Shown here piece after piece: positions 5,027-60,837 of a stretch of DNA of 64,000 nucleotides. Within the stretch, counting starts at the first letter, position 1. The number at the start of each line of letters is the position of its first letter. Origin of the DNA: Candidatus Shapirobacteria bacterium (GTDB lineage: Bacteria > Patescibacteriota > Microgenomatia > UBA12405); the NCBI GenBank assembly GCA_028704635.1, contig JAQWFB010000005.1:26223-90222 (forward strand), in the 5' to 3' direction. A program made the position numbers and the translations under genes. The notes under the pieces are model-generated. The model had not been told where the DNA came from, searched no databases, and was given only the letters and a program-made list of their open reading frames with translations.

Positions 5027-7147
5027 ATGGGTTGGAAAAGAGATAAACCACTTTTAATTACATTAGTACTGCTTTTTATCTTTTTTACTGTTATTAATTT
5101 GTTTTTTAGAGATACAGTTGAAGATGAAACTGAGTATATTAAAGAAGCATTGGTTCTATCTGACTGCATAAGGCATGGACAATGGTTTGGGAATTATAGT
5201 GTCGGCCTACATGGATTTTTACTCAAAATCCCTGCCGCAATTATTTTCATGTTTAGTGGACCAAATATTTTTTTAATCAGATCAATCAATGTTATTTTTT
5301 CTCTAGCAAATTGTATTTTATTTTATAAAATCCTTGATAGTAAAAAAATTAATCTCAGTAAATACAAATTTATTGGTGTTATTTTGTTTATTTCTAGTTT
5401 TCAATTTTTGACCACAACACCAACTTTTATAAAAGAGTCATCTTTATTATTTTTTATCCTCTTATTTATTTATGAATTATTAAATAAAAAAAGATTTTGG
5501 TTATTAGGATTATTTCTTCTCTTAATTTTCGACGCCAAAGAATATGTTGCTTTCGTCATATCTCCAGCCATTGGACTTTGGTTAATAATCTCTAGACAAA
5601 AAAATTTTATTCTTCGCTCTATCCAGATTTTTTTTCCTACTATAATTTTTACGGTTTTAATGTTCACGACATCATTAGTACCTCTTAACCCATTTGTAGC
5701 CTCGATTATAAAATTAACCAACGATTCTCAATACCAAAACAGACATTTTTCAGTCGAATATTCCACTGCTAACCTCCAATTATATACAACTAACGAAAAA
5801 GTTTTAAGTCAAAACATGAAAATCTATCAAATTGTAATAAGTTATGTTCAAAAAATCTTATATCCAAAAGTATTTTCACTACTATCTTTACCATTGATAA
5901 TTGTCATTCCTTCCCTTGCAACATCCATTATTTTATTTAACAAATGGCGTAAAACAAAAAAATATGAATTAATGCTCTTACCTCTTATTTTTTGGATATA
6001 CCTAATAGTTTATGTCTTTTATACATCAATAGGCAGGTATCTCTATCCAATATTTCCCATTATTTATATATTTTTCTTATTTTTAATAAAAAATAACAAA
6101 ATTTTTTCCAAACCAATACTCCTGACAATTATTTCTACCTCCGGAATATTAACCATATTGGACGTCTTTTACGACCAAGGGTTCTTGTATATAAAAGCTC
6201 TTCTATATTTATGTTTTTTTATAGGACTAATCTTGATAAGTTTCGATAAATTTAAAAAATTATCATTTTTATATATCTACTGCTTTTGTCTTGTTTCCTT
6301 CGCTTCTACCTTTATATTTTTTATAACTCAAGACCAAATCGCCAACAGCCTTAATTGGGGAATAGACCGTGAATGCCAAGAAATAATCAAAGAATTACCC
6401 GAAAATGGAAAAATACTAATCAATGAATTTGGTTGGAAACAATTACCCAATATTTATATTAATGAAACTTATAATTTACCAGAATGGCAATGGCCACTCA
6501 AAGACTGGGTCCCAAAAAAAACACTATTAAAAACAATAGGGGATCAAAAAATATATAATAATTTATGGTCAACAGAAGAAGAATTAAAAAAAATAATTGA
6601 ATTTAATAATATTGAATATTTAGTTTTTATTGAATCATCTCTGACTGATAATAAATTCTATCGCCAAGGTACAGTAAATTTTGCACTGGGGTTAGAATGG
6701 ACCAAACTAGAAAAAGTTAAAACGTACAAAAACAAATATATATATATTCTCAAAATAATCAATCCAAAAGACAATAAGAATCAATTAAATTTTAAATTAA
6801 AGATAAATAAAAACACAGATCAAAAAAATCTAGGTACTCTCTTTTCTATAAAGAATAATTATGGAAAAGAAGTTATAAGTATCGGACTAATAGAACCAAA
6901 AAAGAATAATAATAAAATTATTATGAAAATAAAGAATAATATTGGGGTTTCTTGCCCTATAAATTGGAAAAATGAAAGTATTTTAAGATTTAAAATTGAT
7001 TCCAATTTAATAATAATTTACCAAGACGATAATTTTATATGCAAAACTATATTAAATAACATCGATTATGACCACATAAAAAATAAAGTCACCATTGGAA
7101 ATGGAATATATGGTAGACTCAATGGAAGTATTAATTTAATTAAATAG
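5027..7147 (+). CDS. GT-C-fold membrane glycosyltransferase-like protein (ArnT/PMT-like) with a C-terminal soluble domain of about 250 aa
   Basis: Polytopic N-terminal domain with an acidic first-loop motif (..RDTVEDETEYI..) as in GT39/GT83 enzymes. Confidence 0.45.
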   Translation: MGWKRDKPLLITLVLLFIFFTVINLFFRDTVEDETEYIKEALVLSDCIRHGQWFGNYSVGLHGFLLKIPAAIIFMFSGPNIFLIRSINVIFSLANCILFYKILDSKKINLSKYKFIGVILFISSFQFLTTTPTFIKESSLLFFILLFIYELLNKKRFWLLGLFLLLIFDAKEYVAFVISPAIGLWLIISRQKNFILRSIQIFFPTIIFTVLMFTTSLVPLNPFVASIIKLTNDSQYQNRHFSVEYSTANLQLYTTNEKVLSQNMKIYQIVISYVQKILYPKVFSLLSLPLIIVIPSLATSIILFNKWRKTKKYELMLLPLIFWIYLIVYVFYTSIGRYLYPIFPIIYIFFLFLIKNNKIFSKPILLTIISTSGILTILDVFYDQGFLYIKALLYLCFFIGLILISFDKFKKLSFLYIYCFCLVSFASTFIFFITQDQIANSLNWGIDRECQEIIKELPENGKILINEFGWKQLPNIYINETYNLPEWQWPLKDWVPKKTLLKTIGDQKIYNNLWSTEEELKKIIEFNNIEYLVFIESSLTDNKFYRQGTVNFALGLEWTKLEKVKTYKNKYIYILKIINPKDNKNQLNFKLKINKNTDQKNLGTLFSIKNNYGKEVISIGLIEPKKNNNKIIMKIKNNIGVSCPINWKNESILRFKIDSNLIIIYQDDNFICKTILNNIDYDHIKNKVTIGNGIYGRLNGSINLIK

Positions 7148-7151
7148 ATAT

Positions 7152-7958
7152 ATGGATTTCGACTATAACAAATACTATAAAAATAAAACAAAAGATTTTT
7201 ATAAATACGAAAAGAAAATCGCTTTTTGGAAAGCCAAACATCTATTAAGTTTAATAAATGACACAACAAATGATAAATCCATTATTGAAATTGGTACGGG
7301 TAATGGAGAAGTACTAAATAACTTTACAAATTTTAAAGTAAAAATAGGAACAGATATTTCTTCGGAAGCAATCAAAAGAAATGTTTATGTAAAAGAATCA
7401 AAAAACATTAAAATAATAGACAAACATATTAATCGTAATGATATAAACAATAGTTTCATTTCCTTTAAAAATGTAATTAAAATTCCTAAGGAAAAATTAT
7501 TTTTATTAATCTTTGATGCTCAAAAAAAAACTGTGTTTGATAATAAATCAGTAGATTACGTTCTAGCCTGTGATATATTAGAACATGTTAAAGACCCAAA
7601 TCAATTATTAAGAGAAATATCAAGGATAGGGAATAAATTCTTATTTAAAATACCTATTGAAAACTGTTTATTAACAAAATTAAGTCTAAAAATTAACAAT
7701 ATTAAATACGAAATTAACCATCCATCAGGACATATTCATTGCTGGAATTTAAAACAAATTCATCAACTATTAAAGAATAATAATATAAAAATAAAAAAAG
7801 AAAAATTTATTCCAATAAATAACGAAACGATAGAAGGAAACTCTATTTTCAAAAAAATTATAATAAATACCATTCTTACATTAGATAAAATAACCATGAG
7901 TCATAATATGTTTTCAAAATGGCTATTGGGTGGAAATGTATTTATTTTAGGAGAATAG
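7152..7958 (+). CDS. Class I SAM-dependent methyltransferase
   Basis: Motif I-like IIEIGTGNGEVL and post-I acidic motif ..VLACDILEHV.. Confidence 0.6.
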   Translation: MDFDYNKYYKNKTKDFYKYEKKIAFWKAKHLLSLINDTTNDKSIIEIGTGNGEVLNNFTNFKVKIGTDISSEAIKRNVYVKESKNIKIIDKHINRNDINNSFISFKNVIKIPKEKLFLLIFDAQKKTVFDNKSVDYVLACDILEHVKDPNQLLREISRIGNKFLFKIPIENCLLTKLSLKINNIKYEINHPSGHIHCWNLKQIHQLLKNNNIKIKKEKFIPINNETIEGNSIFKKIIINTILTLDKITMSHNMFSKWLLGGNVFILGE

Positions 7959-8149: not shown

Positions 8150-9639
8150 TTCTCCAATATTTCTACCTGTCCATTAAACTCTCCAAAAATTCCTTCTTCT
8201 AAAACTAAACTCAAACCATCATCAAACGAAAAACCAGGATTTAATACTTGACCAATTATCCTATCACCCTCTTTAATTACCACTTTATCTTTATCAAAAA
8301 TAAAGTCAATCAATGTTGATTCCTTTGTAATATTTAAAAATGTATTTAAACAGCCAGGTTTTTCAAGAGAATAAATGCGGCCATATTCATCAATCTGTTC
8401 ATTTGTCAAAAAATCTGGATTTTTTATATCATAACCCCAACCTCGAAGATTAGATGTTGTCGCAAATAATTTATTGGAATAAGCAACTAAAGAAGTAACT
8501 CTCTGACCCAAAAAAGCGCTTTCTTCACCTACTAGTTGACCAAGATAAGGGATAAAGGGATCTTCTTCAACAGGATGACTAAACAACCTTGTTGATAAAG
8601 ACCAACTTTTTGACTCATGATCATAAATCATAATTTCACCCCTGGGCCAATAACCAACATATAAATTACCACCATAAATAGCCATCGACTGAGCTTCTCT
8701 ATCAGCATAATCTTTTTCTAAAAAAGGTGATAATAACGAAGGTTTAAAAACTTTTCCATCAAACTCATACAATCTGCCAGTAGGCCATGCACCTATCAAT
8801 GTTTTTCCATCATAATAAATAGAACTATAAAATTGTTTTCCTCTAGGTTTGTCAAGTATTTTTTTTGACAATCCCTCATCACAATAATAATTCTCATTTT
8901 CATGTTCACTCGCCTGACACCAACCCTTTCCGTCAAAAATCAAAATCGATCCATAATTTGTAATAGCAATTACTTTACCATTGTTTTCAGCATAAATATA
9001 AGGCCACGTACCTTTATATATCTCAATGCGAAAACAATCACCTTTATTAAACCGATCTTTACAGGCAACAACAAAATTATTATCCAAACCAAAAATAAAA
9101 CCGTTGGCATAAAATTTATTATCATAATTCATATCATTATTAAGTTGAAATAAATTTTCATCAAGTGACGTGTTAATTTTTAACTTATCATCGTCAAGTT
9201 TATAAACATTTCCATTTGCCATATCCTTAAAAAGGATACAATTTTCTTTTACAAAAGAAAATCCTGTTTTAAATTTTTTTGAAGGCTTACCAATAGTCTT
9301 AAAATTACTTTCCATTTTTTTCGTCAAACCATCCTGTTGTTTAACAAAAAAACTCATTTCTCCAGGTTGATAACCAGAATAAGTATTCCAATAACGTATA
9401 AAACCTGCCGAAGCCACGATATTACCTTGCTTGGTTTTCAAAGAAAAAATAGTTCCAAAAGGAGGAGTATTTTTTTTATCATAAAATATTTTAAAGGATA
9501 ATTTCTGATTAGCAACAACATCTGATTCAAAAAAATTTGATATCTTTGTCGTTTTATTAGACCAATTATTTACCAATAAAAAAATAACACTAATTACCAT
9601 GAATATAAACACGGATATAAATAATTTTTTATATTTCAT
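8146..9639 (-). CDS. Hypothetical exported/membrane-anchored protein with repeated G-x-W-P-x-G aromatic motifs (possible beta-propeller)
   Basis: N-terminal signal anchor (MKYKKLFISVFIFMVISVIFLLV); internal repeats ..YVGYWPRGEIMIYD.., ..IGAWPTGRLYEFD.. Confidence 0.5.
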   Translation of the reverse strand: MKYKKLFISVFIFMVISVIFLLVNNWSNKTTKISNFFESDVVANQKLSFKIFYDKKNTPPFGTIFSLKTKQGNIVASAGFIRYWNTYSGYQPGEMSFFVKQQDGLTKKMESNFKTIGKPSKKFKTGFSFVKENCILFKDMANGNVYKLDDDKLKINTSLDENLFQLNNDMNYDNKFYANGFIFGLDNNFVVACKDRFNKGDCFRIEIYKGTWPYIYAENNGKVIAITNYGSILIFDGKGWCQASEHENENYYCDEGLSKKILDKPRGKQFYSSIYYDGKTLIGAWPTGRLYEFDGKVFKPSLLSPFLEKDYADREAQSMAIYGGNLYVGYWPRGEIMIYDHESKSWSLSTRLFSHPVEEDPFIPYLGQLVGEESAFLGQRVTSLVAYSNKLFATTSNLRGWGYDIKNPDFLTNEQIDEYGRIYSLEKPGCLNTFLNITKESTLIDFIFDKDKVVIKEGDRIIGQVLNPGFSFDDGLSLVLEEGIFGEFNGQVEILEN

Positions 9640-9682: not shown

Positions 9683-10633
9683 TTAACATTTTAAATCCTT
9701 ATTGTATTCCATGTCAAACCACATAGCAAATAACACAAATTGTACACCCATTAAAGAACAGAGCATAAATGCCATAAAATTCATTTTAAACATCTCTCCT
9801 GTCAATATCCATAAATAAATAAATCTAATCAAAAGTACTGTACTGAAAAAAACATTTAAAAAACCAGCAAAATAAAATAAAACTAAAGGATGAAAGTCTC
9901 TAATAATATATTTTTCCTTCATTCTCCAAAAAAACATTTTTAGCATCATTTTAGGTATGGTTAAAAAAACTTTTCCAAGTTTAATTCCAGATTTTTCTCC
10001 AACCCCATAAGTAGGTTCGATTGGGACATCGCAAACTTTTGCATTATAAACATTTAATCTAACCAATAAATCATTTGGCTGCCCATACCTCTTATACATT
10101 TTATCCCAATCAATAAGTTTTAACATTTTACTATTAATTGCCGTATATCCGGTCTGAGAATCCATTATATGCCAATAACCAGAAGCGACCTTAGTACAAA
10201 AAGATAAAATAGAATTTCCTAAATATCTTACTCTGGGTATTTTTTCATAAGCTTCATCAGATAGTAACCTATTCGCCTTTGAATAATCAACTATATTGTC
10301 AACAACTGGATCTAATATTGCCGGTAAATCTTTTGGTAACATTTGTCCATCACCCGCCATAACCACCGCCACATCTATTTTATTATCACGACACCATTTA
10401 TAACCGCTAGCTATTGCTCCACCAACCCCTTCATTAACACTGTGTTTTATTAAAACCACTCGCGTACCCCTTTTTCTCAATAATTCGATCTGAACAACAG
10501 TATTGTCCTTACTTTTATCATCAATAATAATAATTTTGTCTATAAACTTTGGCATTGTTTCAACAACCTTACCAATTTGTTTTCCCTCGTTATAACAAGG
10601 CACAACTACCCCAATTATTTTATTTTTATACAT
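9683..10633 (-). CDS. GT2 polyprenyl-phosphate sugar synthase (GtrB/ArnC/DPM1-like) with C-terminal TM helices
   Basis: VVVPCYNEGKQIGKVVE...IIIDDKSKDNT GT-A fold with DxD; two C-terminal hydrophobic helices. Confidence 0.75.
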   Translation of the reverse strand: MYKNKIIGVVVPCYNEGKQIGKVVETMPKFIDKIIIIDDKSKDNTVVQIELLRKRGTRVVLIKHSVNEGVGGAIASGYKWCRDNKIDVAVVMAGDGQMLPKDLPAILDPVVDNIVDYSKANRLLSDEAYEKIPRVRYLGNSILSFCTKVASGYWHIMDSQTGYTAINSKMLKLIDWDKMYKRYGQPNDLLVRLNVYNAKVCDVPIEPTYGVGEKSGIKLGKVFLTIPKMMLKMFFWRMKEKYIIRDFHPLVLFYFAGFLNVFFSTVLLIRFIYLWILTGEMFKMNFMAFMLCSLMGVQFVLFAMWFDMEYNKDLKC

Positions 10634-12315: not shown

Positions 12316-13596
12316 TTATCTACCAATTCCTTTATAAATAATTCCCATTTTTTTGATTTGATCCCTGTCTAAACAATTTTTTCCATCTACCACAATTTTA
12401 ACCTTAGAGTTGGATAAAATAACAGGTAGACTATTAATAAATTCTTGATGCCCAGTACCAATAATAATTGTTTGCATCCCGTCAATAGCGTCTTCAAGGC
12501 AATTATATTTTCCTTTAATATAAGGATCATATGTTTCTATTAGAATATCTAAAGATTCCAAAATTTCTTTTATCTTCATAGAAGGACTTTCTCTTATGTC
12601 GGCCACATTAGCTTTATAAGTCAAACCTAAAAGAACCACTTTTGTTTTTTTAAGTGGCATATTCAGTTTCTTCATTTCTTTAATTAATTTATCCACAGTA
12701 TATTGAGGCATACCATTATTTATTTCCCGAGCTACTTTTAAAAACCTATGATCAAATCCACTCAAGGCTGCTCTCTTTATTAAATAATAAGGATCAACTG
12801 CAATACAATGACCACCAACCCCACAACCAGGCCAATGCGCCATAAAAGCAAATGGTTTATTAGAAGAGGCCTCAATAGTTTCTTTTAAATCTATCCCCAT
12901 CGCATCAAAAGACATTGCTAATTCATTTACATAAGCAATATTAATATCTCTAAAAGTATTTTCTACAATTTTAGTAGCTTCAGCAACTTTTAAAGAACTC
13001 ACCTCATTTACTTTGGCATCAGTTATAAATGTTCTATAAAACTCAGCTATTTGTTTATTAAATTTTTTATTTATTGATCCTATATTTCGGTTAATATTGT
13101 AAACATTCCATCTTGGATCACCAGGATTTATTCTCTCCGGGCAATGAGCTAAATTTATATCTTTTCCAACTTTGTATTTTGTTAGGCTTTCAATAATAGG
13201 TAATAATCTCTCTTCGCAAGTACCTGGATTTACAGTTGATTCAAGTACAATGTGACAACCCTTTTTAATATATTTACACACCAATTTTATTGCCGATTCC
13301 ACTAAACTATAATCTGGTTCATAATTATCATCAATCGGAGTAGGTACACAAATAATAAAAACATTGGAATCCTTTAAAACAACTTCATCTAAAGACACAT
13401 TTAATTTATTATCTCTAAGGTATAAAGTTACTTCCTTATCGCCAATTGGATTTATTCCTTTCTTAATATCATTTATCTTTTTTTTGTTTAAATCAAATCC
13501 AACTGTTTCGTATAATTTTGTCTTGGCAATGGCCACTAAAGTAGGTAAACCAACATATCCTAACCCTACCACAGCAACTTTTTTAATTTTTTTCAT
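12316..13596 (-). CDS. wbpA: UDP-N-acetyl-D-glucosamine (or mannosamine) 6-dehydrogenase, WbpA/WecC-like
   Basis: N-terminal VAVVGLGYVGLP NAD fold and catalytic Cys region (..GCGVGGHC..) of the UDP-glucose/GDP-mannose dehydrogenase family. Confidence 0.75.
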   Translation of the reverse strand: MKKIKKVAVVGLGYVGLPTLVAIAKTKLYETVGFDLNKKKINDIKKGINPIGDKEVTLYLRDNKLNVSLDEVVLKDSNVFIICVPTPIDDNYEPDYSLVESAIKLVCKYIKKGCHIVLESTVNPGTCEERLLPIIESLTKYKVGKDINLAHCPERINPGDPRWNVYNINRNIGSINKKFNKQIAEFYRTFITDAKVNEVSSLKVAEATKIVENTFRDINIAYVNELAMSFDAMGIDLKETIEASSNKPFAFMAHWPGCGVGGHCIAVDPYYLIKRAALSGFDHRFLKVAREINNGMPQYTVDKLIKEMKKLNMPLKKTKVVLLGLTYKANVADIRESPSMKIKEILESLDILIETYDPYIKGKYNCLEDAIDGMQTIIIGTGHQEFINSLPVILSNSKVKIVVDGKNCLDRDQIKKMGIIYKGIGR

Positions 13597-20252: not shown

Positions 20253-20283
20253 ATTATTTTAAATTTAGAGTATAATTTTTTTA

Positions 20284-20300
20284 TCAACTAATTTAGTTGA
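20284..20300. promoter_or_regulatory. 17-bp perfect dyad TCAACTA-ATT-TAGTTGA just after pgk; candidate protein-binding site
   Basis: Seen directly; overlaps a TTGACA hexamer at 20297-20302. Confidence 0.3.
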
Positions 20301-20555
20301 CAAGTTCCTTAAATTTAAAAGAAAGTGAGGTTGTTTAAAAATGTTAAAACTTCTGATAGAAGATAATCTTCACACAGATCATTTTAATGATGAAAGGAGA
20401 TGATCCAATATCTACACACATCAAATAATGATGGTGTTAATCAAGAAGGGAAGCGATAAAACAATTTTTAAAACAAACCTCTCTCATTTTTTACCAAAAA
20501 TCAAACTCAAGTTTTAAAAAGCAACTTGAAAGTTGAATATCGGTATTTTTTTATA

Positions 20556-20609
20556 GGGCCTGGCTCAGTTTTTTGCATTATGCAAATATTACTGATCTAG
20601 GCCTTTTTT
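20556..20609 (+). terminator. Structured element E1: stem GGGCCTGGCTCAG/CTGATCTAGGCC around the palindrome TTTGCAT-TA-ATGCAAA, then T6
   Basis: Seen directly; looks like an intrinsic terminator in + orientation ~300 nt beyond the pgk stop. Confidence 0.4.
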
Positions 20610-21053
20610 GTTACTTGTTTTTATTTTAATAATATTTTATTATATAAACATATTCAGCCAGTCTGAAATAGATTTTTTTAAAAGCAAAAAAATCTGCACA
20701 TGTACAATCAGTTCTTTATTTAATTTGAAAGGAGGTATCTATTTGGTGGTAATAATATCGTCAAGTCCTTTCTTTTCAAGCCACATCAACCAAAAAGAAA
20801 TTATTCCTGGTATCCGTGGACCCACTTCATAATTTAATTTTTAGTTGTTAGTATTTTGACAATGGGAGGTGTATTGTTTGAGAGTAGTAATGATTAATAT
20901 CCTTACCATTAAAGCAGCAGGCGGTCTTACCCTGAAATAATTGGAATGCGGCCGGTACCAATACCGAGGAAATTATTAAACAATTAAATTTCATTTACAT
21001 TCTTTTCTTTTCAAAAAAAACATACCAATAAAGAACAAAGTTGTTTCACTACC

Positions 21054-21107
21054 GAGCCTGGCTCAGTTTTTTTTTGCATTTTATGCAAACAAGACTGATT
21101 CAGGCTC
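21054..21107. terminator. Structured element E2, a paralogue of E1: GAGCCTGGCTCAG...TTTGCAT-TTT-ATGCAAA...CTGATTCAGGCTC; possible bidirectional terminator
   Basis: 3' arm overlaps the stop codon of the minus-strand flippase; followed by a T-rich tract on the + strand. Confidence 0.35.
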
Positions 21108-24367: not shown

Positions 24368-25555
24368 ATGAAAATTTTATTAATAAGTCATATTTTCCCT
24401 CCCGCTGTCGATGGTGGTTCAAAAGTTATTTATAAACTTGGTCAATATTTCGAATCTCAAAATAATCAAACTCTTTATTTAAGTTCAAATTGCTCTAGCA
24501 CCGACGACTTCATCAAATCTAAATACAAAAAAATATCTACAATCCACAATCTAACATCTACGATTTATCTTCCCGTTTATCACCATCTTCGCCGTCCTCT
24601 AAAATTTCTAAATTTATTTTTAAATCAAAACCTATTAAAAATTTTTCAAAAAGGCCCAATTTTTAAAAGCATCCCATTTTTAAAAGCAATTTATCAAATT
24701 TTAAAATTCAAACCAGATTTAATCATCGCCGGCCCGCTTCCCACCACTATTGTTTTATATGCCAGTTTTTTAAAAAAAATAACCAATTCTAAACTTCTAA
24801 TCAATGCTTCTTTTCATCCCACTGATAATGATTTTCAACAAAAAACTCTAATTAACGCCTTAAAAAAGGCAGATTATTTATGGACTCTTACTCAATCAGA
24901 AACCGATTATTTTACAAAAAAATTTAATATTGATCCTCAAAAAATAATTCTCGCTGGCAACGGCGTCGATGAGAATTTTCTCACTACTCAAAAATCTACG
25001 ACCTACGACCTACGACCTAACATCTTGTTCATCGGTTCTCTCTCCACCCATAAACGCGTCGATCTTTTAATAAAATCATTCTCTACTATCTATAATCTAC
25101 AATCTAATCTCTCTCTAACTATCGCTGGTCAAAAAACTCTTTTCTATCCTCAAATCGAAAAACTAATCAATTCCCTTGACCCAAAAATAAAATCTAAAAT
25201 CAATTTTATTTTTAATTTTGATCAAAAAGATTTGGCTAAAATAATTGATAACTGCTCTGTTCTAGTTTTACCTTCCATCCAGGAAAGTTTTGGTTTAGTT
25301 GTCATCGAAGCCTGGGCTCGGCAAAAACCAGTAATTTGTGCCAATATTCCAGCCTTAAAAGAATTAGTTGAAAAATCAAATGGGGGATTATTATTCCAAG
25401 TTGATGATCAAAACGACCTAACTCAAAAAATTAAATTTATTTTGGATAATCCAAAAAAAGCAGAGCATTTGGGAAAAAGTGGTTACAATTATGTTAAAAA
25501 TAATTATACTTGGAATAAAGTAGGAAATAAAATATGCCAAAAAATATTATGCTAA
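24368..25555 (+). CDS. Glycosyltransferase family 4 (GT-B, GT1 clan)
   Basis: C-terminal ..ESFGLVVIEAWARQKPVICANIPALKELVE.. donor-binding E-x7-E region. Confidence 0.8.
   Translation: MKILLISHIFPPAVDGGSKVIYKLGQYFESQNNQTLYLSSNCSSTDDFIKSKYKKISTIHNLTSTIYLPVYHHLRRPLKFLNLFLNQNLLKIFQKGPIFKSIPFLKAIYQILKFKPDLIIAGPLPTTIVLYASFLKKITNSKLLINASFHPTDNDFQQKTLINALKKADYLWTLTQSETDYFTKKFNIDPQKIILAGNGVDENFLTTQKSTTYDLRPNILFIGSLSTHKRVDLLIKSFSTIYNLQSNLSLTIAGQKTLFYPQIEKLINSLDPKIKSKINFIFNFDQKDLAKIIDNCSVLVLPSIQESFGLVVIEAWARQKPVICANIPALKELVEKSNGGLLFQVDDQNDLTQKIKFILDNPKKAEHLGKSGYNYVKNNYTWNKVGNKICQKILC
24996..25019. repeat. Heptanucleotide tandem repeat (CTACGAC)x3.4 inside GT4 ORF
   Basis: Seen directly; GC-rich island in AT-rich coding DNA; encodes ..KSTTYDLRPN.. 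Confidence 0.8.
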
Positions 25556-25992
25556 TAATTACTCCTGTTTTAATAATAATTGCTGGAATTTTAATTTGGC
25601 GATTATTTTTTTATTTACCACCAGCCAATTCAGTCAAAATTAAAATCGGTAATACTAACTACAATATCGAATTAGCCACAACAATCGCTCAAAAAACAAA
25701 AGGGTTATCCGGACGAAATACTCTCTGTAAAAATTGCGGCATGCTTTTTACTTTTGGTTTCGAAACCAATTTGCCTTTTTGGATGAAAGATACTCTTATT
25801 CCCCTCGATATGATCTGGCTCGATAAAAACGGAAAAATCGTTGATATTCAAACCGCTACTGAAATTAATTCTACTAAAATTTACCAAAACCAATTACCAG
25901 CTCAATTTGTCATCGAATTAAATGTCAATGATTCACAAAAAATAAATCTAAAAATAGGTGATATTATTGATCTGTCAAAAATAAATGATTAA
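25534..25992 (+). CDS. DUF192-family protein with an N-terminal TM anchor
   Basis: ..LSGRNTLCKNCGMLF..LPFWMKDTLIPLDMIWLDKNGKIVDI.. matches the DUF192/COG1430 pattern. Confidence 0.5.
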   Translation: MPKNIMLIITPVLIIIAGILIWRLFFYLPPANSVKIKIGNTNYNIELATTIAQKTKGLSGRNTLCKNCGMLFTFGFETNLPFWMKDTLIPLDMIWLDKNGKIVDIQTATEINSTKIYQNQLPAQFVIELNVNDSQKINLKIGDIIDLSKIND

Positions 25993-26965
25993 TTTTTCTA
26001 TCATCATTCCGAACTATAATGGTGCTTCCTTCTTGAAGGACTGTCTTAATTCCCTAAAACAAGCCATAAATAATTGTCCTGGTTCTGAATTCGAAATAAT
26101 TCTAGTCGACAACAACTCAAAAGATAATAGTCTTGAAATTTTTGAAACCATAATTCCAAAAAATTTTAACTATCGAATATTATTAAACTCAAAAAATTAC
26201 GGATTCGCCGGTGCTGTTAACCAAGGAATTGAAAAAGCCAAACATAAATATGTCGTCTTACTAAATAATGACCTCACCATGGAACCAAAGTGGTTTCAGT
26301 TAATTTCTAAAACCATTAAAGAAAATAAAAATCCAAAAATCGTCACATTTTTTGGCACCGTCCTTACCAAAGATGGAACCAAATTTGAATCCCAAGGTCT
26401 AAAATTTTTCTATTCCGGCAAATGCCAAAATATTTCCAATGGAAAAAAATTTAATAAATCTACGACCTACGACCTACCGTCTACCCAACTAGCCTGGGGT
26501 GCGTCTGCTGCTTTTGTTGTCTACAATAAAAAAATGTTAAAACAAATTGGTCTTTTTGATGAAAATTTTTTCGCCTACGAAGAAGATGTTGATTTAGCTC
26601 TTCGTCTTCATAACTTAAATTATCAAACCCTTTATATTCCTCAAGCTATTTCTTATCACCTCGGTGGTGGCACTAGTAATAAAATGGGTATTTTTAGGTA
26701 TAAAATGGATGCCAAAAATTGGATTTATATTATCATCAAAAATTTTTCCAAAAAAGAAATAATTAAAAATTTTCCTCAAATCATCGAAGAACGTCTTAGA
26801 AATTTATCCGGACTAATAAAACAAATTATTCGTCTTTATAAAATAAAATCAATTTATTTTTTGCCTTTGATTTTATTTTCCACCTACGGAGAAGTTCTTG
26901 TAAATCTTCCAAAAATGTTTAAAAAACGAAAAATAATTCAAAAACTTGATAAACTAACTCAATGA
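25985..26965 (+). CDS. Glycosyltransferase family 2 (GT-A)
   Basis: N-terminal FSIIIPNYNGASFLKDCLNSL.. and DxD-type motifs. Confidence 0.8.
   Translation: MINFSIIIPNYNGASFLKDCLNSLKQAINNCPGSEFEIILVDNNSKDNSLEIFETIIPKNFNYRILLNSKNYGFAGAVNQGIEKAKHKYVVLLNNDLTMEPKWFQLISKTIKENKNPKIVTFFGTVLTKDGTKFESQGLKFFYSGKCQNISNGKKFNKSTTYDLPSTQLAWGASAAFVVYNKKMLKQIGLFDENFFAYEEDVDLALRLHNLNYQTLYIPQAISYHLGGGTSNKMGIFRYKMDAKNWIYIIIKNFSKKEIIKNFPQIIEERLRNLSGLIKQIIRLYKIKSIYFLPLILFSTYGEVLVNLPKMFKKRKIIQKLDKLTQ
26460..26487. repeat. Heptamer array CTACGAC-CTACGAC-CTACCGT-CTACCCA inside GT2 ORF, with the same AAAT 5' flank as at 24996
   Basis: 22 nt identical to the 24991-25016 copy (AAATCTACGACCTACGACCTAC). Confidence 0.75.
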
Positions 26966-28104
26966 TTATTGGCATTGACATCTCATCTGTTCCTTATAAA
27001 ACTGGCGTAAGTAATTACACTCTCAACCTCATCAGAAATTTAGTTAAACTCGACAAGATCAATACATATAAACTTTTTTATTCGTCTCTTCGGCTTCCAC
27101 TTCCAAATGAAATAATTGAAATAAAAAAAACTCACTCCAATATTAAAATCTATCAATTCAAACTACCACCAACTTTTCTACAAATTCTATGGAATCAACT
27201 TCATCTTTTTCCAATTGAGATTTTTATTGGTAAATGCGACATTTTTCACACATCAGACTGGACTCAACCACCAACCATAAAAACTAAAACAATTACTACT
27301 GTTCATGATCTTACTCCCTTCCTGCATCCTGAATGGCATCATTCCAAAGTCATTGCCGCTCATAAAAATAAAATGAACTTAGCCGCAAAAAAATGTTTTA
27401 AATTCATTTGCGTCTCCCAAAGCACTAAAAATGATTTATTAAAGATTTTCCCTAAAATTAATCCACAAAAAATAGATGTTGTTTACGAAGCCGCCGAAGA
27501 TAAATATGGAAAATTTTTAAAATTATCTAAAGAAATAAAACAGAAGAAAAAGGAAACCATTAAAAAGCAATACGATTTAGATAAATTTATTCTAGCTCAA
27601 GGTACACGCGAACCACGAAAAAATCTTAAAAGATTAATCGATGCTTTTGTCATTTTTAAAAAAAATAATCCTAAGTGTCGAGTTGATCTAGCCATTGCCG
27701 GTAAATATGGTTGGGGAGAAGATGTTGATGGTGCTAAAAATCCATCTGTTAAAATCCTTGGATTTATCCCAGAAAAAGATATGGTCGCTCTTCATGCCAG
27801 TGCTATTTGTTTAGCTTATCCATCCCTTTATGAAGGTTTTGGTTTACCGTTAGTCAAATCTCTTAAAGTTGGAACTCCAATCATTACTAGTAATGTTTCC
27901 TCCATGCCAGAAGTCGGTGGTAATGCTGCCCTTTACGTCAATCCAAATTCTATACCAGATTTAACCAAAGCCATTACTAAAATAATTAAATCATCCGCTC
28001 TTAGAAAAAAGCTAATTGAAAATGGTCTAATCCAAGCCAAAAAATTTGATTGGTCAAAAACTGCCGAACAAACTTTATCCATTTACAAATCCATATCTAA
28101 TTAA
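26962..28104 (+). CDS. Glycosyltransferase family 4
   Basis: C-terminal ..EGFGLPLVKSLKVGTPIITSNVSSMPEV.. motif. Confidence 0.8.
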   Translation: MIIGIDISSVPYKTGVSNYTLNLIRNLVKLDKINTYKLFYSSLRLPLPNEIIEIKKTHSNIKIYQFKLPPTFLQILWNQLHLFPIEIFIGKCDIFHTSDWTQPPTIKTKTITTVHDLTPFLHPEWHHSKVIAAHKNKMNLAAKKCFKFICVSQSTKNDLLKIFPKINPQKIDVVYEAAEDKYGKFLKLSKEIKQKKKETIKKQYDLDKFILAQGTREPRKNLKRLIDAFVIFKKNNPKCRVDLAIAGKYGWGEDVDGAKNPSVKILGFIPEKDMVALHASAICLAYPSLYEGFGLPLVKSLKVGTPIITSNVSSMPEVGGNAALYVNPNSIPDLTKAITKIIKSSALRKKLIENGLIQAKKFDWSKTAEQTLSIYKSISN

Positions 28105-28129
28105 CAATTTATTATTGTTATAATCAAAT

Positions 28130-29146
28130 ATGAAGTTTACCCGAACCAAAAAATTGGTATTTTTCAACAATAAAGGTGGTGTCGGAAAAACTACTTTAGC
28201 CTACAATACTGCTGTTAAGCTATCAGAGTTTGGTTATAAAACCGTTTTAATCGATTTGGACCCACAATGTAATTTATCTAAGTTATCACTGGGTAAGTCT
28301 TTTGAAGAAAATTTATTTTCTGTTAATCAAAAAACTATCTTCACTGTTTTAGAAGGAATTATAAAAGGTGGCGCAGATATTGATAAAACTGTTGATTTTG
28401 AATCAATAAGTAAAAATTTATTTATATTACCAGGTAGTTTACTACTATCAGAATATGAAAATTCATTAATATCAGCTTATGGAGATGCTGCCCAAGGAGT
28501 CGAAAGGGGATTCTTTATAACCAGTGCCATTGATAGATTTTTAAGTGAAAAAGGCCTAGAAAACGAAGTTGATATTTATATCATAGACACTTCACCAAAT
28601 TTAAATTTATTAAATAGAATAATATTTTTAGGATCCGACTATTTTATAACACCACTAATGCCAGATGCTTTTTCTGTCCAAGGAATTGAAAATTTAGGAA
28701 CCACTTTTGAAAAATGGAAAGATAATTGGAAAAAAACTGCTAAGGTATTGGCCAGAGATAAACAAATTTCACATGACAAAGTTTTAGATGGAGAAGGATT
28801 ATTTATTGGTTATATTATCAACTCGTATAATCAATATTCTAAAAAACCAATTAAGAGTAATGAAGAATGGATCAAAAAAGTTCCTTCTTTTATTAAAAAA
28901 TATTTATCAGAAAAACATTGTCGAAATGGTTTAGTTGAAAAATCTTGGAAAAACAAACTAGCTTTAATCAAAGATTTTGGACAACTACCTCCTTTAGCCC
29001 AAATCAAAAATAAAGCAATTTTTAATCTAGATCCAATAAAGGATAATTTTGATAATGTAAAAGGAACAAAAGAAAATCTTGAACAGGCTAAAAAAGAATT
29101 CCAACAATTAACAGAAAATATATTGGAAATATTAAATAAATATTAA
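28130..29146 (+). CDS. ParA/MinD-family P-loop ATPase (deviant Walker A KGGVGKTT) with a ~100-aa C-terminal extension
   Basis: ..FFNNKGGVGKTTLAYNTAVKL..VLIDLDPQCNLS.. is a canonical ParA/Soj N-terminus; no parB follows. Confidence 0.7.
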   Translation: MKFTRTKKLVFFNNKGGVGKTTLAYNTAVKLSEFGYKTVLIDLDPQCNLSKLSLGKSFEENLFSVNQKTIFTVLEGIIKGGADIDKTVDFESISKNLFILPGSLLLSEYENSLISAYGDAAQGVERGFFITSAIDRFLSEKGLENEVDIYIIDTSPNLNLLNRIIFLGSDYFITPLMPDAFSVQGIENLGTTFEKWKDNWKKTAKVLARDKQISHDKVLDGEGLFIGYIINSYNQYSKKPIKSNEEWIKKVPSFIKKYLSEKHCRNGLVEKSWKNKLALIKDFGQLPPLAQIKNKAIFNLDPIKDNFDNVKGTKENLEQAKKEFQQLTENILEILNKY

Positions 29147-29147
29147 T

Positions 29148-30263
29148 ATGTTAATTGGTATTGATGGTAATGAAGCCAATATTAAAAATCGTGTCGGTGT
29201 TGGCCAATATGCTTTTAATTTATTGAAAAATATTTATTTAATTGATCAAAAAAATCAATATATTGTTTATTTAAAAAACAAACCATTAGAAGATCTTCCT
29301 AAAAGTAGGGCAAATTGGCATTATAAAGTTTTTGGGCCTCAAAAGCTTTGGACTAAAATTGCTCTCCCAATTCACCTTTTCACTCAAAAAGAAAAATTAG
29401 ACGTTTTTTATTCCCCCAGTCATTATTCGCCCCAATTTTCTCCTTGTCCCACCATTCCAACTATTCACGATCTTGGATATCTTCAATTTCAAAACCAATT
29501 TACCAAAAAAGATCTTTACCAATTAATTAATTGGACTAAACAATCGATTAAAAAAGCAGCTCACATAGTTACTGTTTCTGATTTTTCTAAAACTGAAATT
29601 GAAAAAACTTATCAAATTGATCCACAAAAAATAACCATTGCCTACAACGGTGTTAATGAACCGCTAAAAATTAATGACAAAAAACAAAAAGAAATTTTAA
29701 AATCCTACAACCTACGATCTAAGTCTTACTATTTATACTTGGGTACATTAAAACCAAATAAAAATATCCCTTTTTTAATTCGTGCATTTTCAAAATTTTT
29801 AAAAACAACTGACCAGGAAACTAAACTAGTAATTGCCGGTAAAAAGGGTTGGCTTTTTGATGAAATTTTTTCTACCGTCCAGAAAGAAAGTGTCGAAGAT
29901 AATATTGTTTTTACTGATTTCGTTGATAATTATCAAAAAACTATTCTTTATCAACATGCCAAAGCCCTAATTATGCCCAGTATTTACGAAGGTTTTGGTA
30001 TACCCGTAATCGAAGCCATGAAATTAAATACACCTGTAATTTCCAGTAATATTGATCCTTTAAAAGAAGTTATTCAAAATAACGGTTTTTATTTTGAACC
30101 AACCAATCAAGAAGAATTAGTTCATCAACTTATTAATTTTGAAAGAATTAATCCCAAAGAAATCAAAAAAATAACAGATCAAGCCAAAATCCGCGCCGAT
30201 TTTTTTACCTGGACCAACACTGCCAAATCCGTCATCTCCGTTTTTGAAAAATTTAAAAAATAA
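29148..30263 (+). CDS. Glycosyltransferase family 4
   Basis: C-terminal ..EGFGIPVIEAMKLNTPVISSNIDPLKEV.. motif. Confidence 0.8.
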   Translation: MLIGIDGNEANIKNRVGVGQYAFNLLKNIYLIDQKNQYIVYLKNKPLEDLPKSRANWHYKVFGPQKLWTKIALPIHLFTQKEKLDVFYSPSHYSPQFSPCPTIPTIHDLGYLQFQNQFTKKDLYQLINWTKQSIKKAAHIVTVSDFSKTEIEKTYQIDPQKITIAYNGVNEPLKINDKKQKEILKSYNLRSKSYYLYLGTLKPNKNIPFLIRAFSKFLKTTDQETKLVIAGKKGWLFDEIFSTVQKESVEDNIVFTDFVDNYQKTILYQHAKALIMPSIYEGFGIPVIEAMKLNTPVISSNIDPLKEVIQNNGFYFEPTNQEELVHQLINFERINPKEIKKITDQAKIRADFFTWTNTAKSVISVFEKFKK

Positions 30264-31434: not shown

Positions 31435-32353
31435 TCCTGTTCTTTCGATAATTATTATTTCCTACAACACCAGCGAAATAACCATTAATTGTCTTAAGTC
31501 AATTTTCCAAGACAAAGGTCTTAAAGAAATTCCCTTTGAAATTATTATTGTCGACAACAACTCTAAGGATGATTCGGTTGCTCAGATAAAAAAATTCAAA
31601 GAAATAAAATTAATCGCCAATAAATTTAATGGGGGATTTGGTAAAGCAAACAATCAAGGCTTAAAAATTGCCAAAGGTAATTATATTTTATTTCTAAATT
31701 CCGACACTATTATTCTCCATTCCGCCATCAGCCAAACCTTAAATTGGCTTTGCTCCCATCCTGAGGCTTCGGTTTGCACTGCTCAGTTATTAAACAAAGA
31801 TAAAACCATTCAAGCCTCTGGTGGTTTTTTCCCAAATTTAATAAATATTAAAACCTGGTGTTTAAATTTAGACGATCTCCCTTTTGTTAACAAAATTATT
31901 AAACCTCTTCATCCTCACACACCCAATTTTTACACTCACGACAAATTTTATTTAAAAGATCACCAACAAGATTGGGTTACCGGCGCTTTTATGATGGTTC
32001 GATCATCTCATTTAAAACCAACCCATGGTTTTGACGAAAATTATTTTATGTACGGCGAAGAAGTTGAACTTTCTTATCGTATCAAAAAAAATAATCCTCA
32101 ATCTCAAACTTGGTACTTAATTGGCCCTCAAATTATTCATCTCGGTGGTGCTTCAGCCCAAAACAAAATCGATCCCATTATTAATGAATATCGCGGCATT
32201 CTCGCTTTTTTTAAAAAACACAAAAGCCAATGGCAGTACCAAATAGTCAAATATTTAATTAAATTTAATGCCGTCAGTCGTGGTGTTATATACTCTATTA
32301 GAGGTAATAAAAATACTGCCTCACTTTATTTTCAAACATGTTCAAAAATCTAA
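31427..32353 (+). CDS. Glycosyltransferase family 2
   Basis: N-terminal LSIIIISYNTSEITINCLKSI.. and ..IIIVDNNSKDDS.. Confidence 0.8.
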   Translation: MINPVLSIIIISYNTSEITINCLKSIFQDKGLKEIPFEIIIVDNNSKDDSVAQIKKFKEIKLIANKFNGGFGKANNQGLKIAKGNYILFLNSDTIILHSAISQTLNWLCSHPEASVCTAQLLNKDKTIQASGGFFPNLINIKTWCLNLDDLPFVNKIIKPLHPHTPNFYTHDKFYLKDHQQDWVTGAFMMVRSSHLKPTHGFDENYFMYGEEVELSYRIKKNNPQSQTWYLIGPQIIHLGGASAQNKIDPIINEYRGILAFFKKHKSQWQYQIVKYLIKFNAVSRGVIYSIRGNKNTASLYFQTCSKI

Positions 32354-33741
32354 ATATTTTTCGACCAATAATCGCCATTCTTATCTTGTTTATTCCTCTG
32401 TATCCTAAATTTCCTTTAACTAGTGTCGATGGCACCTATGTTGCCATCCGTCTCGACGATGTAGTTATAGCCCTTACTATTTTAATTTGGGCAATTTACC
32501 AACTCACTCACAAACTTCCTGTTTTTAAAATAAAAATAACCAAATTATTTTTAGCCTATTTTACGGCTATTATTGCCAGTTTCATTACCGCTTTTCTTGT
32601 TTATCAAACCGACTCAACAACACTTTTGCTTCTTCATCTAGCCCGCCGCTTTGAATATATTTCTTTATTTTTTATAGCTATCGATAGTATTAAATCGAAA
32701 CAAGATTTAAATTTTAGCTACATTTTTCTTTTAATCACTACTTTTTTTGTCAGCATTTATGGTTACGGTCAAAAATATTTTCAATTCCCAGTAATTTCCA
32801 CTATGAATTCTGAATTTTCCAAAGGTCAATTACTTCAAATGAGTACATGGACACGTATCAATTCTACTTTTGCCGGTCATTATGATCTAGCCGCTTTTTT
32901 AAGTGTCGTTTTAATAATTATCGCTGCAGTTTTTATTCTCAATAAAAATAAATGGATTAAATTATTCAGCTTGGTTGTTTGGGTTGCCTCATATCCAATT
33001 CTTACATTCACTGCATCCAGAGTTTCCATTTTTGCCTTTCTTGCAGGAATTTGTTTCACTCTTTTTGCTCTAAGAAAATATTTTTGGATTATTCCTTTTG
33101 TTATTTTAGTTGCTTTCAGTATTTTTAATTCAGAAGATCTAAATCAAAGATTATTAGCCACTATTCCTGCTTTAAAAAATCAAATAAATAAAACCACTAC
33201 TGCCACAATAACTCCCACTGCTACTCCAACTTCAATTCCAGTCATCGCCGTTACCACTCCGATACCAACTTCTACAAAATTATTACCAACTCCAACTGTC
33301 GTTCGTCATCCTACCACTGAAACTTACCCTACTGTTGATGTTGATGCTGGCGTCGCTCGATCCGGTGAAATTCGTTTTAATGTTGAATGGCCACGAGCCA
33401 TCAGGGCATTTAATAAAAATATGATTACTGGCACTGGTCTTGGCTCCATCACTCTTGCCACCGATAATGATTATCTCCGATTATTAGGCGAAAGTGGACT
33501 TTTAGGATTTATTTCCTTTATGATCATTCCTTTGTATTTCATAATAAAGACTGTTCCTAAAATATTTAAAAAGAAATCTACGATCTACGACCAAATATCC
33601 ATCATCTTTCTTGGCTGTCTTTTAACTACCCTAGCCAATGCTGTTTTTATCGATGTTTTTGAAGCTTCAAAAACTGCTTATCTTTTTTGGATTATGATGG
33701 GTTTTTATTATCAATTGCTAAATTTCAAAGATGAAAAATAA
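32338..33741 (+). CDS. O-antigen ligase/polymerase-like (Wzy_C-type) polytopic membrane protein with a Thr/Pro-rich insertion
   Basis: About 10 TM segments; large periplasmic-loop region; TP-rich low-complexity stretch ..TTTATITPTATPTSIPVIAVTTPIPTST.. Confidence 0.5.
   Translation: MFKNLNIFRPIIAILILFIPLYPKFPLTSVDGTYVAIRLDDVVIALTILIWAIYQLTHKLPVFKIKITKLFLAYFTAIIASFITAFLVYQTDSTTLLLLHLARRFEYISLFFIAIDSIKSKQDLNFSYIFLLITTFFVSIYGYGQKYFQFPVISTMNSEFSKGQLLQMSTWTRINSTFAGHYDLAAFLSVVLIIIAAVFILNKNKWIKLFSLVVWVASYPILTFTASRVSIFAFLAGICFTLFALRKYFWIIPFVILVAFSIFNSEDLNQRLLATIPALKNQINKTTTATITPTATPTSIPVIAVTTPIPTSTKLLPTPTVVRHPTTETYPTVDVDAGVARSGEIRFNVEWPRAIRAFNKNMITGTGLGSITLATDNDYLRLLGESGLLGFISFMIIPLYFIIKTVPKIFKKKSTIYDQISIIFLGCLLTTLANAVFIDVFEASKTAYLFWIMMGFYYQLLNFKDEK
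33578..33591. repeat. CTACGAT-CTACGAC heptamer pair with AAAT flank inside ligase-like ORF
   Basis: Shares AAATCTACGA..CTACGACC with the copies at 24991 and 26456. Confidence 0.65.
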
Positions 33742-59251: not shown

Positions 59252-60430
59252 ATGGGATTAATTAAAACTCTTACTGGACAATTTGCCAAAATAAAAGTCA
59301 TCGGAGTCGGTGGCGGTGGTAATAATGCCATTAATTCAATGATTACCGAAGATGCCATCAAAGGTGTCGACTTCATCGCCGTTAATACTGATTCTCAAGC
59401 CCTCTTAAATTCTCTTGCTTCAATCAAAATCCAAATTGGTGAAAAATTAACCAAAGGTCTTGGTGCTGGAGGTAATCCCCAAATGGGACAAAAAGCCGCC
59501 GAAGAATCAAAAGAAAGAATCAAAGAAGTTTTACAAGGCACCGATATGGTTTTTGTCACTGGTGGTATGGGTGGCGGCACATGCACTGGAGCCGCTCCAA
59601 TTATTGCCCAAATCGCCAAAAAAGAATTAGGAATTTTAACTATTGGTGTTGTTACTAAACCATTTTTGTTTGAAGGCACTCGTCGTATGACCAATGCCGA
59701 AGAAGGAATTTCTCAATTAAGAGAAAATGTTGACACTTTAATTGTTATTCCCAATCAAAAAGTCATGGAAGTTGTCAACAATAAGGCAACACTTTTAGAA
59801 GCCTTTAAAATTGCTGATTCTGTTTTAAGCAAAGGAACTAAAGCCATCGCTGATTTAATCACTGTTCCTGGATTAATTAATCTAGATTTTGCCGATATTA
59901 AGGCTGTTATGAGTAATGCCGGCTCTGCTCTTATGGGAACAGGTGAAGCCGAAGGAGAAAATAAAATCCAAAAAGCCGTTGAAGACGCCATTGATTCTCC
60001 ATTAGTTGAAGTTAATATTGAAGGTGCTAGAGGAGTTTTGATTAATGTTACTGGCGGACCCGATATCACCATGTCTGAAATTGAAGAAGCCGCTAGAAAT
60101 ATTACTGAACGAACCGCTCCAGACGCCAATATTATTTTTGGAGCTACCATCGACAAAGAACTCAAAGGCAAAGTTAAGATTTCTGTTATCGCGACTGGGT
60201 TTGACACTAGTCGGGCTAATCTTTATCAGCATATTAAAAAACCACAACCAACTCTAATAAATTTACCAAATCAACCCAAACCCCAAACACAGGAAAATAA
60301 AAATACATTAGAAGAATCAAATCTTAGTGATAATCGAATAAAAGAATTCTTAAATACTAAAGAAGTTCCCACTGGCATCGATATCATCGACGAATACGAT
60401 ATCCCTGCTTTCCTGAGAAAAAATAAATAA
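59252..60430 (+). CDS. ftsZ: Cell division GTPase FtsZ
   Basis: ..[17 protein letters not shown].. and ..[12 protein letters not shown].. tubulin signature. Confidence 0.9.
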
Positions 60431-60683: not shown

Positions 60684-60837
60684 TAAATACACTTTCCTTT
60701 CACATCCAATTTTTTATGTACTTCTTTTACAGAAGAACTCAAAAGCTTAATTTCGAGTTATGTAAAAGATTGTATTAGTTTAATAACTTTCGTTATAAAA
60801 CTAACCTATAATATCACACAAGTATTAATTTGTCAAG

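Follow-up and report, generated by a model that had tools for sequence, protein, structure and literature searches.

A family of in-frame heptanucleotide arrays in glycan genes of Candidatus Shapirobacteria, probably kept alike by exchange within the genome

How do two glycosyltransferase genes of unrelated fold come to share 22 consecutive nucleotides? This question is raised by a 64,000-nt stretch of Candidatus Shapirobacteria DNA (assembly GCA_028704635.1, contig JAQWFB010000005.1, positions 26,223 to 90,222), here called the window in its full length, in which AAATCTACGACCTACGACCTAC occurs as an exact 22-mer at two positions of the plus strand, 24992-25013 and 26456-26477, within a cluster of glycan genes. 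We propose that both copies belong to a family of 7-nt arrays with a CTAC core that lies in permissive loops of the proteins encoded in this cluster, is exchanged within the genome, and has no dedicated function. For this reading as a whole, we estimate a probability of roughly 0.58.

The shared 22-mer and its protein setting

The first copy is located in a gene for a GT4 glycosyltransferase of the GT-B fold (24368-25555, plus strand, 395 amino acids, taken from the list of open reading frames [ORFs]; Pfam PF00534, 3.4e-32; mean AlphaFold2 pLDDT, 89) and the second in a gene for a GT2 glycosyltransferase of the GT-A fold (25985-26965, plus strand, 326 amino acids; Pfam PF00535, 7e-30; mean pLDDT, 92). 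A preliminary description of this DNA, made from the letters alone, had noted the 22-nt identity between unrelated hosts, and both the exact match and the Pfam assignments (Glycos_transf_1 versus Glycos_transf_2) bore it out. Tandem Repeats Finder (TRF) assigned to both copies a period of 7 and the unit CTACGAC with 100% matches, over 24996-25019 (3.4 copies) and 26460-26477 (2.6 copies). The successive heptamers of the GT2 copy are CTACGAC (26460-26466), CTACGAC (26467-26473), CTACCGT (26474-26480), and CTACCCA (26481-26487), the last two being the degenerate heptamers that had been described. As also described, both 22-mer copies encode K-S-T-T-Y-D-L in the same register.

Among exact repeats of the window whose composition is non-trivial, none is longer than AAATCTACGACCTACGACCTAC. 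A chance origin of the match was ruled out, since dinucleotide-preserving shuffles of the window yielded no match even with up to three mismatches tolerated, in agreement with the non-chance frequency that had been claimed for the motif. Convergence on KSTTYDL at the protein level was ruled out by codon usage: given this peptide, the string AAA TCT ACG ACC TAC GAC CTA has a probability of 1.6e-5 under the codon usage of the window, where ACG is the rarest Thr codon (3.5% of Thr codons) and TAC, GAC, and CTA are minority codons, and the probability that two independent KSTTYDL peptides share all seven codons is 3e-3. Because these codons are rare for a genome of ~30% G+C (the value of the window), the identity is one at the DNA level, as the preliminary description had argued. 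An assembly artefact was ruled out as well, because GCA_028689945.1 and GCA_028681165.1, two further assemblies of this organism, carry both repeats base for base, with ORFs and domains intact. The shared 22-mer is a DNA-level repeat, namely, two instances of a heptanucleotide microsatellite, (CTACGAC)n.

Six CTAC-core heptamer arrays were found between 24.5 and 33.6 kb, four of them in addition to the pair noticed at first, and all on the plus strand, in frame, and within ORFs. Three are in the GT4 gene: s0 (24537-24564; CTACAAT CCACAAT CTAACAT CTACGAT, encoding STIHNLTSTI), which was read from the sequence and matches CTACRAY at 24537 and 24558; s1 (24992-25019; AAAT followed by 3.4 copies of CTACGAC, encoding KSTTYDLRP), which contains the first 22-mer; and s2 (25083-25110; degenerate CTACTAT CTATAAT CTACAAT CTAATCT, encoding STIYNLQSN), which was detected by TRF with a period of 7 at 25082-25106 and by matches to CTA-N4-CTA-N4-CTA. 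The array of the GT2 gene (26456-26487; AAAT followed by the four units given above, encoding KSTTYDLPSTQ) was recognized, like s1, by TRF and by the hypervariability of orthologs described below. The remaining two are heptamer-like stretches, one in a second GT4 gene (29148-30263) with AATC CTACAAC CTACGAT CTAA read from the sequence at 29701-29722 (KSYNLRS), and the other in a Wzy_C (O-antigen ligase-like) gene (32338-33741) with AAAT CTACGAT CTACGAC CAAA at 33574-33595 (KSTIYDQ). The search for CTA-N4-CTA-N4-CTA returned 7 matches versus 0.27 expected, all on the plus strand and within 24996-29721, and no CTAC-core arrays were found in the rest of the window (~55 kb). As to the window as a whole, CTAC occurs 150 times and GTAG 47 times, CTACRAY 29 times on the plus strand and never on the minus strand, and the GC skew is negative along its entire length.

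The stretch at 29701 occupies a position structurally equivalent to s1 but is read in another frame, and its 17-mer CTACAACCTACGATCTA (29705-29721) is identical in the s1 array of a relative (locus L214). At both 29701 and 33574, the site has a fixed length and ordinary linker codons in all orthologs, being heptamer-like only in genomes with CTAC-core (type A) arrays elsewhere. These two copies were dropped as cassettes and regarded as fixed-length linker codons that became "heptamerized" in some genomes only.

AlphaFold2 models of the GT2 and GT4 proteins, built from ortholog alignments, showed that the four cassette-type arrays (s0, s1, s2, and the GT2 array) occupy linker or loop positions, with the lowest model confidence coinciding with the arrays. 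In GT4, s0 corresponds to the N-domain loop of least confidence (residues 51-60, pLDDT 61) and s1 to a coil (residues 205-217, pLDDT 77 to 83) that bridges the two Rossmann domains just ahead of strand 218-222, running from the N-terminal domain up to the strand with which the C-terminal one begins. The GT2 array encodes a surface loop ahead of the WGASAA strand, and residues 161-170 form the lowest block of this model (pLDDT 76). All forward frames of CTACGAC are free of stop codons and its complement contains TAG, so that an in-frame array is possible only in this orientation; being free of stops, and with three units making 21 nt or seven codons, it is tolerable inside a gene, given a loop that accepts any peptide. 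For annotation, peptides such as STTYDLRP, LTSEKLKSE, and PRPVKGGVRGGF should not be taken as protein motifs.

Repeat families and array length at orthologous sites

For each gene, 120 orthologs were aligned out of hundreds of close metagenome homologs (57 orthologs were compared at s0), and syntenic DNA was obtained for five genomes via exact-protein look-up and for ~45 Shapirobacteria-like loci via a metagenome scan. In the alignments, nearly invariant flanks enclosed hypervariable array segments, which fell into a few discrete peptide types recurrent in both unrelated genes (STTYDLRP/STIYNLRS-like, LTSEKLKSEIL-like, and PRPVKGGVRGRF/PSLSKEGAGGGL/TPCPVKGRVGEGF-like). At the DNA level, type A consists of CTAC-core heptamers (CTACGAC, CTACCAT, CTACGAT, CGACGAT, and CAACGAT), type B of ATCTGAN heptamers arranged as ATCTGAN-ATCTGAN-AAACTGAN-ATCTGAN, and type C of GC-rich hairpins, e.g., CCCCCTCCTT-GTCA-AAGGAGGGGG, followed by G-runs and sometimes nested. 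The three sites read at the DNA level (s1, s2, and GT2) hold genome-specific families A, B, or C between conserved flanks, and s0 displayed the same kind of variation at the protein level. This showed that the s1, s2, and GT2 sites are old and are filled by other short-repeat families in relatives.

One family may occupy all three sites of a genome, as in L003 (B, B, B) and in L007 and L133 (C, C, C). The GT2 site measures 33 nt in A-type and most C-type cassettes, and its cassette forms a local island of 39 to 51% identity between flanks of 75 to 92% and 85 to 87%. Sites were almost always filled in orthologs, with differing content and no recognized target duplications; in a few orthologs, such as L130 at s1, the segment was much shorter and held no recognizable cassette. 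In 567 kb of related loci, period-7 arrays were overrepresented (38, versus 15 and 11 arrays with periods of 6 and 8, respectively).

Several observations concern the B and C families themselves. L003 contains at least seven ATCTGAN arrays on one strand within 7 kb (6004-6035, 7313-7335, 8484-8512, 9003-9031, 9096-9124, 10484-10510, and 12795-12820), of which the first two are perfect 7-nt runs between called genes. The coding ones have an 8-nt step or a TGA-to-CGA change, and as read from the sequence their frame stays open because the former puts TGA out of frame and the latter replaces it. Short GC-rich hairpin cassettes lie in frame in AT-rich genes of L007 (8977-9000 and 10521-10550), L133 (6338-6375), L129 (1341-1377 and 9011-9028), and L131 (429-470). 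Examples are CCCCCTCCTT-GTCA-AAGGAGGGGG with GTTGGGGGTGGATT, and modules of GTCCCGA-TTTA-TCGGGAC with GAGGGTTTAA; such cassettes recur across sites and genomes and contain Shine-Dalgarno-like AAGGAGG and G4-like G-runs. The fold of the L133 cassette was calculated at -28.8 kcal/mol (z -3.1).

The earlier notion of slippage-prone repeats, in the sense of unstable length, was not supported in the relatives examined. Arrays were identical, length included, in the three assemblies of the organism. In L214, whose GT4 gene is 91.8% identical at the nucleotide level, s1 and s2 have the same lengths as in the window, even though the s1 units are imperfect (CTACAAC CTACGAT CTACGAC) versus three perfect CTACGAC units in the window. 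No copy-number differences were found in L001, L002, and L214. A-type GT2 cassettes were uniformly 33 nt long across orthologs of 60 to 90% identity. Upstream and downstream flanks were in the same frame at 45 of 45 ortholog sites, and none of these 45 instances was a frame-shifted (OFF) allele. This constancy bears on a contingency locus, in which gain or loss of one unit would switch a glycosyltransferase off or on, because 7 is not a multiple of 3, and thereby yield phase-variable surface glycans as in the lipooligosaccharide (LOS) genes of Haemophilus and Neisseria. Location in surface-glycan genes and a unit not divisible by three would suit such a switch, and phase-variable simple sequence repeats (SSRs) are typical of these genes (PMC2651432, PMC11868660). 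With only 2.6 to 3.7 units per array, constant length in close relatives, and every ortholog site in frame, we consider it very improbable, and phase variation was not supported.

Exchange between arrays and its alternatives

To quantify concordance, we compared cassettes from non-orthologous sites by the length of the longest exact word that they share, for pairs from the same genome and pairs from different genomes. Words averaged 7.67 nt in same-genome pairs versus 5.78 nt in different-genome pairs, and the observed mean was reached in 0 of 2,000 label permutations (P < 1/2000; this and the following P value are approximate, because the genomes in the test are phylogenetically related). Words of at least 10 nt were present in 8 of 43 same-genome pairs and in 29 of 602 different-genome pairs. 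The excess persisted when only GT4-versus-GT2 pairs were considered (mean, 7.47 versus 5.83 nt; permutation P = 0.0024; words of at least 10 nt in 5/30 versus 28/420 pairs). The largest same-genome words measured 28, 22, and 21 nt; the 28-mer joins two sites of the L004 GT4 gene, as judged by reading the sequence, and independent cases of words shared between GT4 and GT2 within other genomes reached 21 nt in L003, 12 nt in L139, and 10 nt in L129. Sharing between unrelated genes of one genome above the cross-genome level points to exchange between arrays.

The GT2 array itself is informative in this respect. It reads AAAT CTACCAT CTACCAT CTACCAT CTACCAA in L129 and AAAT CTACGAT CTACGAT CTATCAT CTAATAA in L215. 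The array of the window has the same length (33 nt) and prefix, and its window-specific changes in units 1 and 2 are exactly those that match the s1 array of the GT4 gene, 1.46 kb upstream. Judged from the sequences, this pattern would fit an exchange between quasi-repeats by template switching or short-patch gene conversion with length preserved, and the arrays of one genome are probably kept alike by such non-reciprocal exchange. In the mechanism that we propose, one of these two processes would maintain the uniformity of units inside an array without altering its length, and the same process would copy between arrays of one genome, so that the GT2 array came to equal the GT4 array over its first ~22 nt. 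Selection for an open reading frame and for loop length would filter the arrays, which would have no dedicated function and arise from repeat dynamics as a by-product, either neutral or selfish.

The preliminary description had offered a mobile or recombining short element, or gene conversion. Recombination between repeats is partly supported by the within-genome resemblance and by the changes in the lineage of the window that made the two arrays identical, whereas a discrete mobile element found no support, as the array has no inverted repeats, structure, or presence/absence footprint. Recombination breakpoints at the motif, which had also been envisaged, were not supported by identity profiles against L133 and L140: the only clear mosaic junction of the GT2 gene lies near 26666, ~200 nt downstream of the array. 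From there on, the C-terminal helical part of GT2 (~26666-26900) occurs as two divergent alleles in comparison with L133 and L140 (~52 to 63% versus ~90% nucleotide identity) with a sharp junction, which indicates mosaic recombination within the cluster.

Several points weigh against the explanation proposed here. Gene conversion is read from patterns only, and 22 nt cannot prove a donor-recipient tract. Both sites have AAATCTAC as an ancestral prefix, so that only ~14 nt had to converge, and homogenization within arrays together with few unit variants (GAC, GAT, CAT, and AAT) could lead to convergence by chance in a minority of genomes. In L006, the GT2 site has two CTACGAC units without a CTACGAC donor at GT4 s1. 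To the approximate nature of the P values comes the confinement of all six arrays to 9 kb with glycan genes, with none in the other 55 kb, a clustering that a purely neutral model does not predict unless loops are unusually permissive or exchange is local. Part of this evidence would also suit independent convergence, in which ancient CTAC arrays with a shared prefix were homogenized separately to the same unit with no transfer between genes: orthologs at both sites have the prefix in common, only about four unit variants recur, L006 has its two units with no matching s1 array, and CTACGAC arrays arise in many phyla. Such convergence is nevertheless unlikely in our judgment, given that unrelated genes are more concordant within than between genomes (P = 0.0024, approximate as stated) and that whole families co-occur at several sites of one genome, for which independent point mutation cannot account.

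Two in-frame insertions of a miniature mobile element at permissive sites, comparable to the Rickettsia palindromic elements (RPEs) or the small dispersed repeats (SDRs) of cyanobacteria, would also place one sequence in two genes. RPEs are a precedent for in-frame selfish DNA (PMC10969869), the orthologous sites of other genomes hold dispersed-looking GC-rich hairpins that are sometimes nested and, in L133, strongly folded, and in a few orthologs, such as L130, the s1 segment is much shorter and without a recognizable cassette. The CTACGAC arrays themselves have neither inverted repeats nor secondary structure (folding z-scores of three window arrays, +0.17, +0.59, and +0.56), a hairpin being present only in C-type cassettes of other genomes. 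They have no recognizable ends or target duplications, fade into degenerate units at the 3' side, and equal differently composed arrays of relatives in length; no transposase was seen near them, although none was specifically looked for. An insertion of this kind is therefore improbable, and we assign a similarly low likelihood to a functional cis-element, in which unstructured, C/A-rich CUACGAC repeats or their rare codons would either offer a platform to a single-strand nucleic-acid-binding protein or act as a translational pause at domain boundaries, and would co-evolve with a genome-specific factor. The clustering in one operon-like glycan region on one strand, the rare codons, the position of s1 exactly at the inter-domain linker, and the binding of heptamer repeats by cold-shock proteins (discussed in PMC4679880) are compatible with such a role, and co-evolution with a trans factor would likewise produce concordance within genomes. 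On the other hand, sequence is not conserved across orthologs, unstructured and strongly folded families replace each other, no Rfam family was matched, and no candidate factor was identified. We thus retain exchange between arrays without dedicated function as the preferred explanation.

Other candidates fared no better. A fixed target site, as suggested earlier, is unlikely because A-type arrays have no RNA structure and because orthologous positions, rather than conserving their sequence, carry unrelated repeat families. RNA structure or a known RNA family was ruled out, since the arrays are unstructured and covariance models of Rfam gave no match at the gathering threshold in the whole window; no tRNA was found in the window either. 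A phage origin was not supported by viral contigs, which gave only five matches to the A repeat and did not match the C-type core. Mutagenesis of the diversity-generating retroelement (DGR) type was dropped because allele differences are wholesale replacements rather than A-specific substitutions; the window contains no template/variable repeat pair of ~100 nt. In repetitive extragenic palindromic (REP) elements, a GTAG head precedes a hairpin rich in GC, and a Y1 transposase (RAYT) is associated with them. GTAG is present in the arrays as its complement, CTAC, but a hairpin is absent, and no search for a RAYT gene was made, neither here nor for the loci with true GTAG-plus-hairpin elements (GTAG GGGCGACC cttgc GGTCGCCC, the hairpin being perfect). 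These REP-like elements were seen in L149 (6979-6999, 12015-12035, and 12643-12663, i.e., three copies in one 20-kb locus) and in L007 (13380-13399).

A number of further features were observed in the window and in neighboring loci. A gene for a ParA/AAA_31-type ATPase (28130-29146) lies within the glycosyltransferase cluster only in the assemblies of this organism, and its syntenic position in relatives is either empty or occupied by a methyltransferase gene. The PGK and flippase genes are separated by 850 nt of gene-poor sequence (20253-21099), which contains two terminator-like GAGCCTGGCTC hairpins with a T-run (~20556 and ~21054). Downstream of the ORF at 59252-60430, there is a 49-nt direct repeat (60426-60474 and 60834-60882, 408 nt apart), whose copies have 71% identity and share an exact core of 28 nt, AAAAACGGCCAAAAACTAAAAACAAATA. 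In L006, a small gene with 23S_rRNA_IVP and faint bAvd-like Pfam matches (6645-6950) adjoins the glycan cluster; it is absent from the window.

Distribution and relation to known repeats

Scanning one genome per species for CTACGACCTACGACCTAC returned at least 120 loci, and the matches listed include Gemmatimonadales, Nitrospirales, Thermoanaerobaculia, Planctomycetota, Gammaproteobacteria, cyanobacteria, and other Patescibacteria. These arrays often stand beside sister heptamers (CCTATGA, CCAACGA, and CACCTTT). Whether all matches fall in glycan genes, as the preliminary description had asked, was answered in the affirmative inside the window but in the negative globally: many phyla are involved, and among the matches listed, 16 of the 19 arrays of (CTACGAC)n that could be judged in other phyla, all in low-GC loci, lie outside long ORFs. 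As to extremes, a Nitrospirales chromosome carries an array of 29.6 units (L013, 17-223, and L050 are among the loci in unrelated phyla), and one Gemmatimonadales genome (JANRJE01; L020, L041, and L017) contains dozens of arrays, often as inverted pairs ~100 nt apart.

In the literature searched, neither the CTACGAC repeat unit nor anything relevant on SSRs in Patescibacteria was found. In most bacterial genomes, no long SSRs have been described as more abundant than heptanucleotide repeats, which are mainly intergenic, and a link of the heptamer to the polymerase footprint has been proposed (for both, PMC4679880 and PMC4692102 cite Mrazek et al. 2007). Repeats of this kind that have been named include the short tandemly repeated repetitive (STRR) sequences of Calothrix and Nostoc, TAACTGA in marine Beggiatoaceae, and GGGAATC/GGGGAYT in Xanthomonas and Nostoc (PMC4679880, PMC4692102). 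Against this background of repeats with unexplained origin and role, the present arrays lie inside essential-looking enzyme genes of a reduced genome of the candidate phyla radiation (CPR). They are read in all three frames yet uniform across unrelated genes, and with hundreds of syntenic metagenomic loci they provide a tractable comparative system, suited to asking how dispersed microsatellites exchange sequence.

The most interesting by-product of this analysis is that, at the same loops across Shapirobacteria, other short repeats or tiny hairpins take the place of heptamer arrays in a cassette-like manner; the hairpins suggest that the protein loops of CPR bacteria are shaped by short selfish DNA, much as those of Rickettsia are by RPEs. 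A wider interpretation, which we regard as tentative and unlikely, would posit a lineage-wide system of very short in-frame cassettes (CTAC heptamers, ATCTGAN heptamers, and GC-rich hairpin/G-run elements of ~33 to 60 nt) in Shapirobacteria and perhaps other CPR bacteria, in which cassettes at fixed loops of many glycan genes overwrite one another through active genome-wide copying. If so, the copying process could represent a new intragenic mini-mobile DNA or templated conversion mechanism, and arrays at the inter-domain linker of GT-B enzymes, in the same orientation and frame, might promote domain shuffling of glycosyltransferases.

Among known systems, the arrays share with STRR-type SSRs the head-to-tail 7-nt units in 2 to 6 copies, the many dispersed arrays per genome, and a phylum-scattered distribution with a function that is unexplained in the published work (PMC4679880, PMC4692102). 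Some related loci even come close to published units (AACTGTA/TAACTGA-like in L161 and ATCTGAN in L003), and several arrays of their own unit are present in related genomes. Unlike STRR-type SSRs, which are overwhelmingly intergenic, underrepresented in ORFs, and variable in copy number, every array of the window is genic, in frame, and at a loop, and its length appears fixed. Repeat DNA in frame in unrelated genes at fold-compatible positions is also a trait of RPEs and of intragenic transposable elements of the miniature inverted-repeat type (MITEs); RPEs occur in frame in unrelated housekeeping and metabolic genes and have been interpreted as selfish DNA (PMC10969869). In contrast to RPEs, which are palindromic, ~100 to 150 bp long, and encode a conserved peptide, the arrays of the window are tandem, non-palindromic, and 20 to 33 nt long; the GC-rich hairpin cassettes of relatives are nearer to RPEs in spirit but measure only ~33 to 60 nt. 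With the SSR contingency loci in LOS and lipopolysaccharide genes of Haemophilus, Neisseria, and Campylobacter, they have in common a simple repeat inside a glycosyltransferase frame whose unit is not divisible by three, but contingency loci have long tracts and frequent ON/OFF variants, whereas the present tracts are short and invariant in length, and no OFF allele was seen. The small variable segments outlined by Touzain et al. 2010 (PMC2884548) likewise combine conserved flanks with a short segment that is wholly different between related genomes; those outlined there were compared within the species Escherichia coli, Staphylococcus aureus, and Streptococcus pyogenes and share no repeat families, unlike the families shared here. 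The arrays are best described as members of the known class of bacterial heptamer repeats in a new form, which is intragenic, in frame, length-stable, and located in glycan genes.

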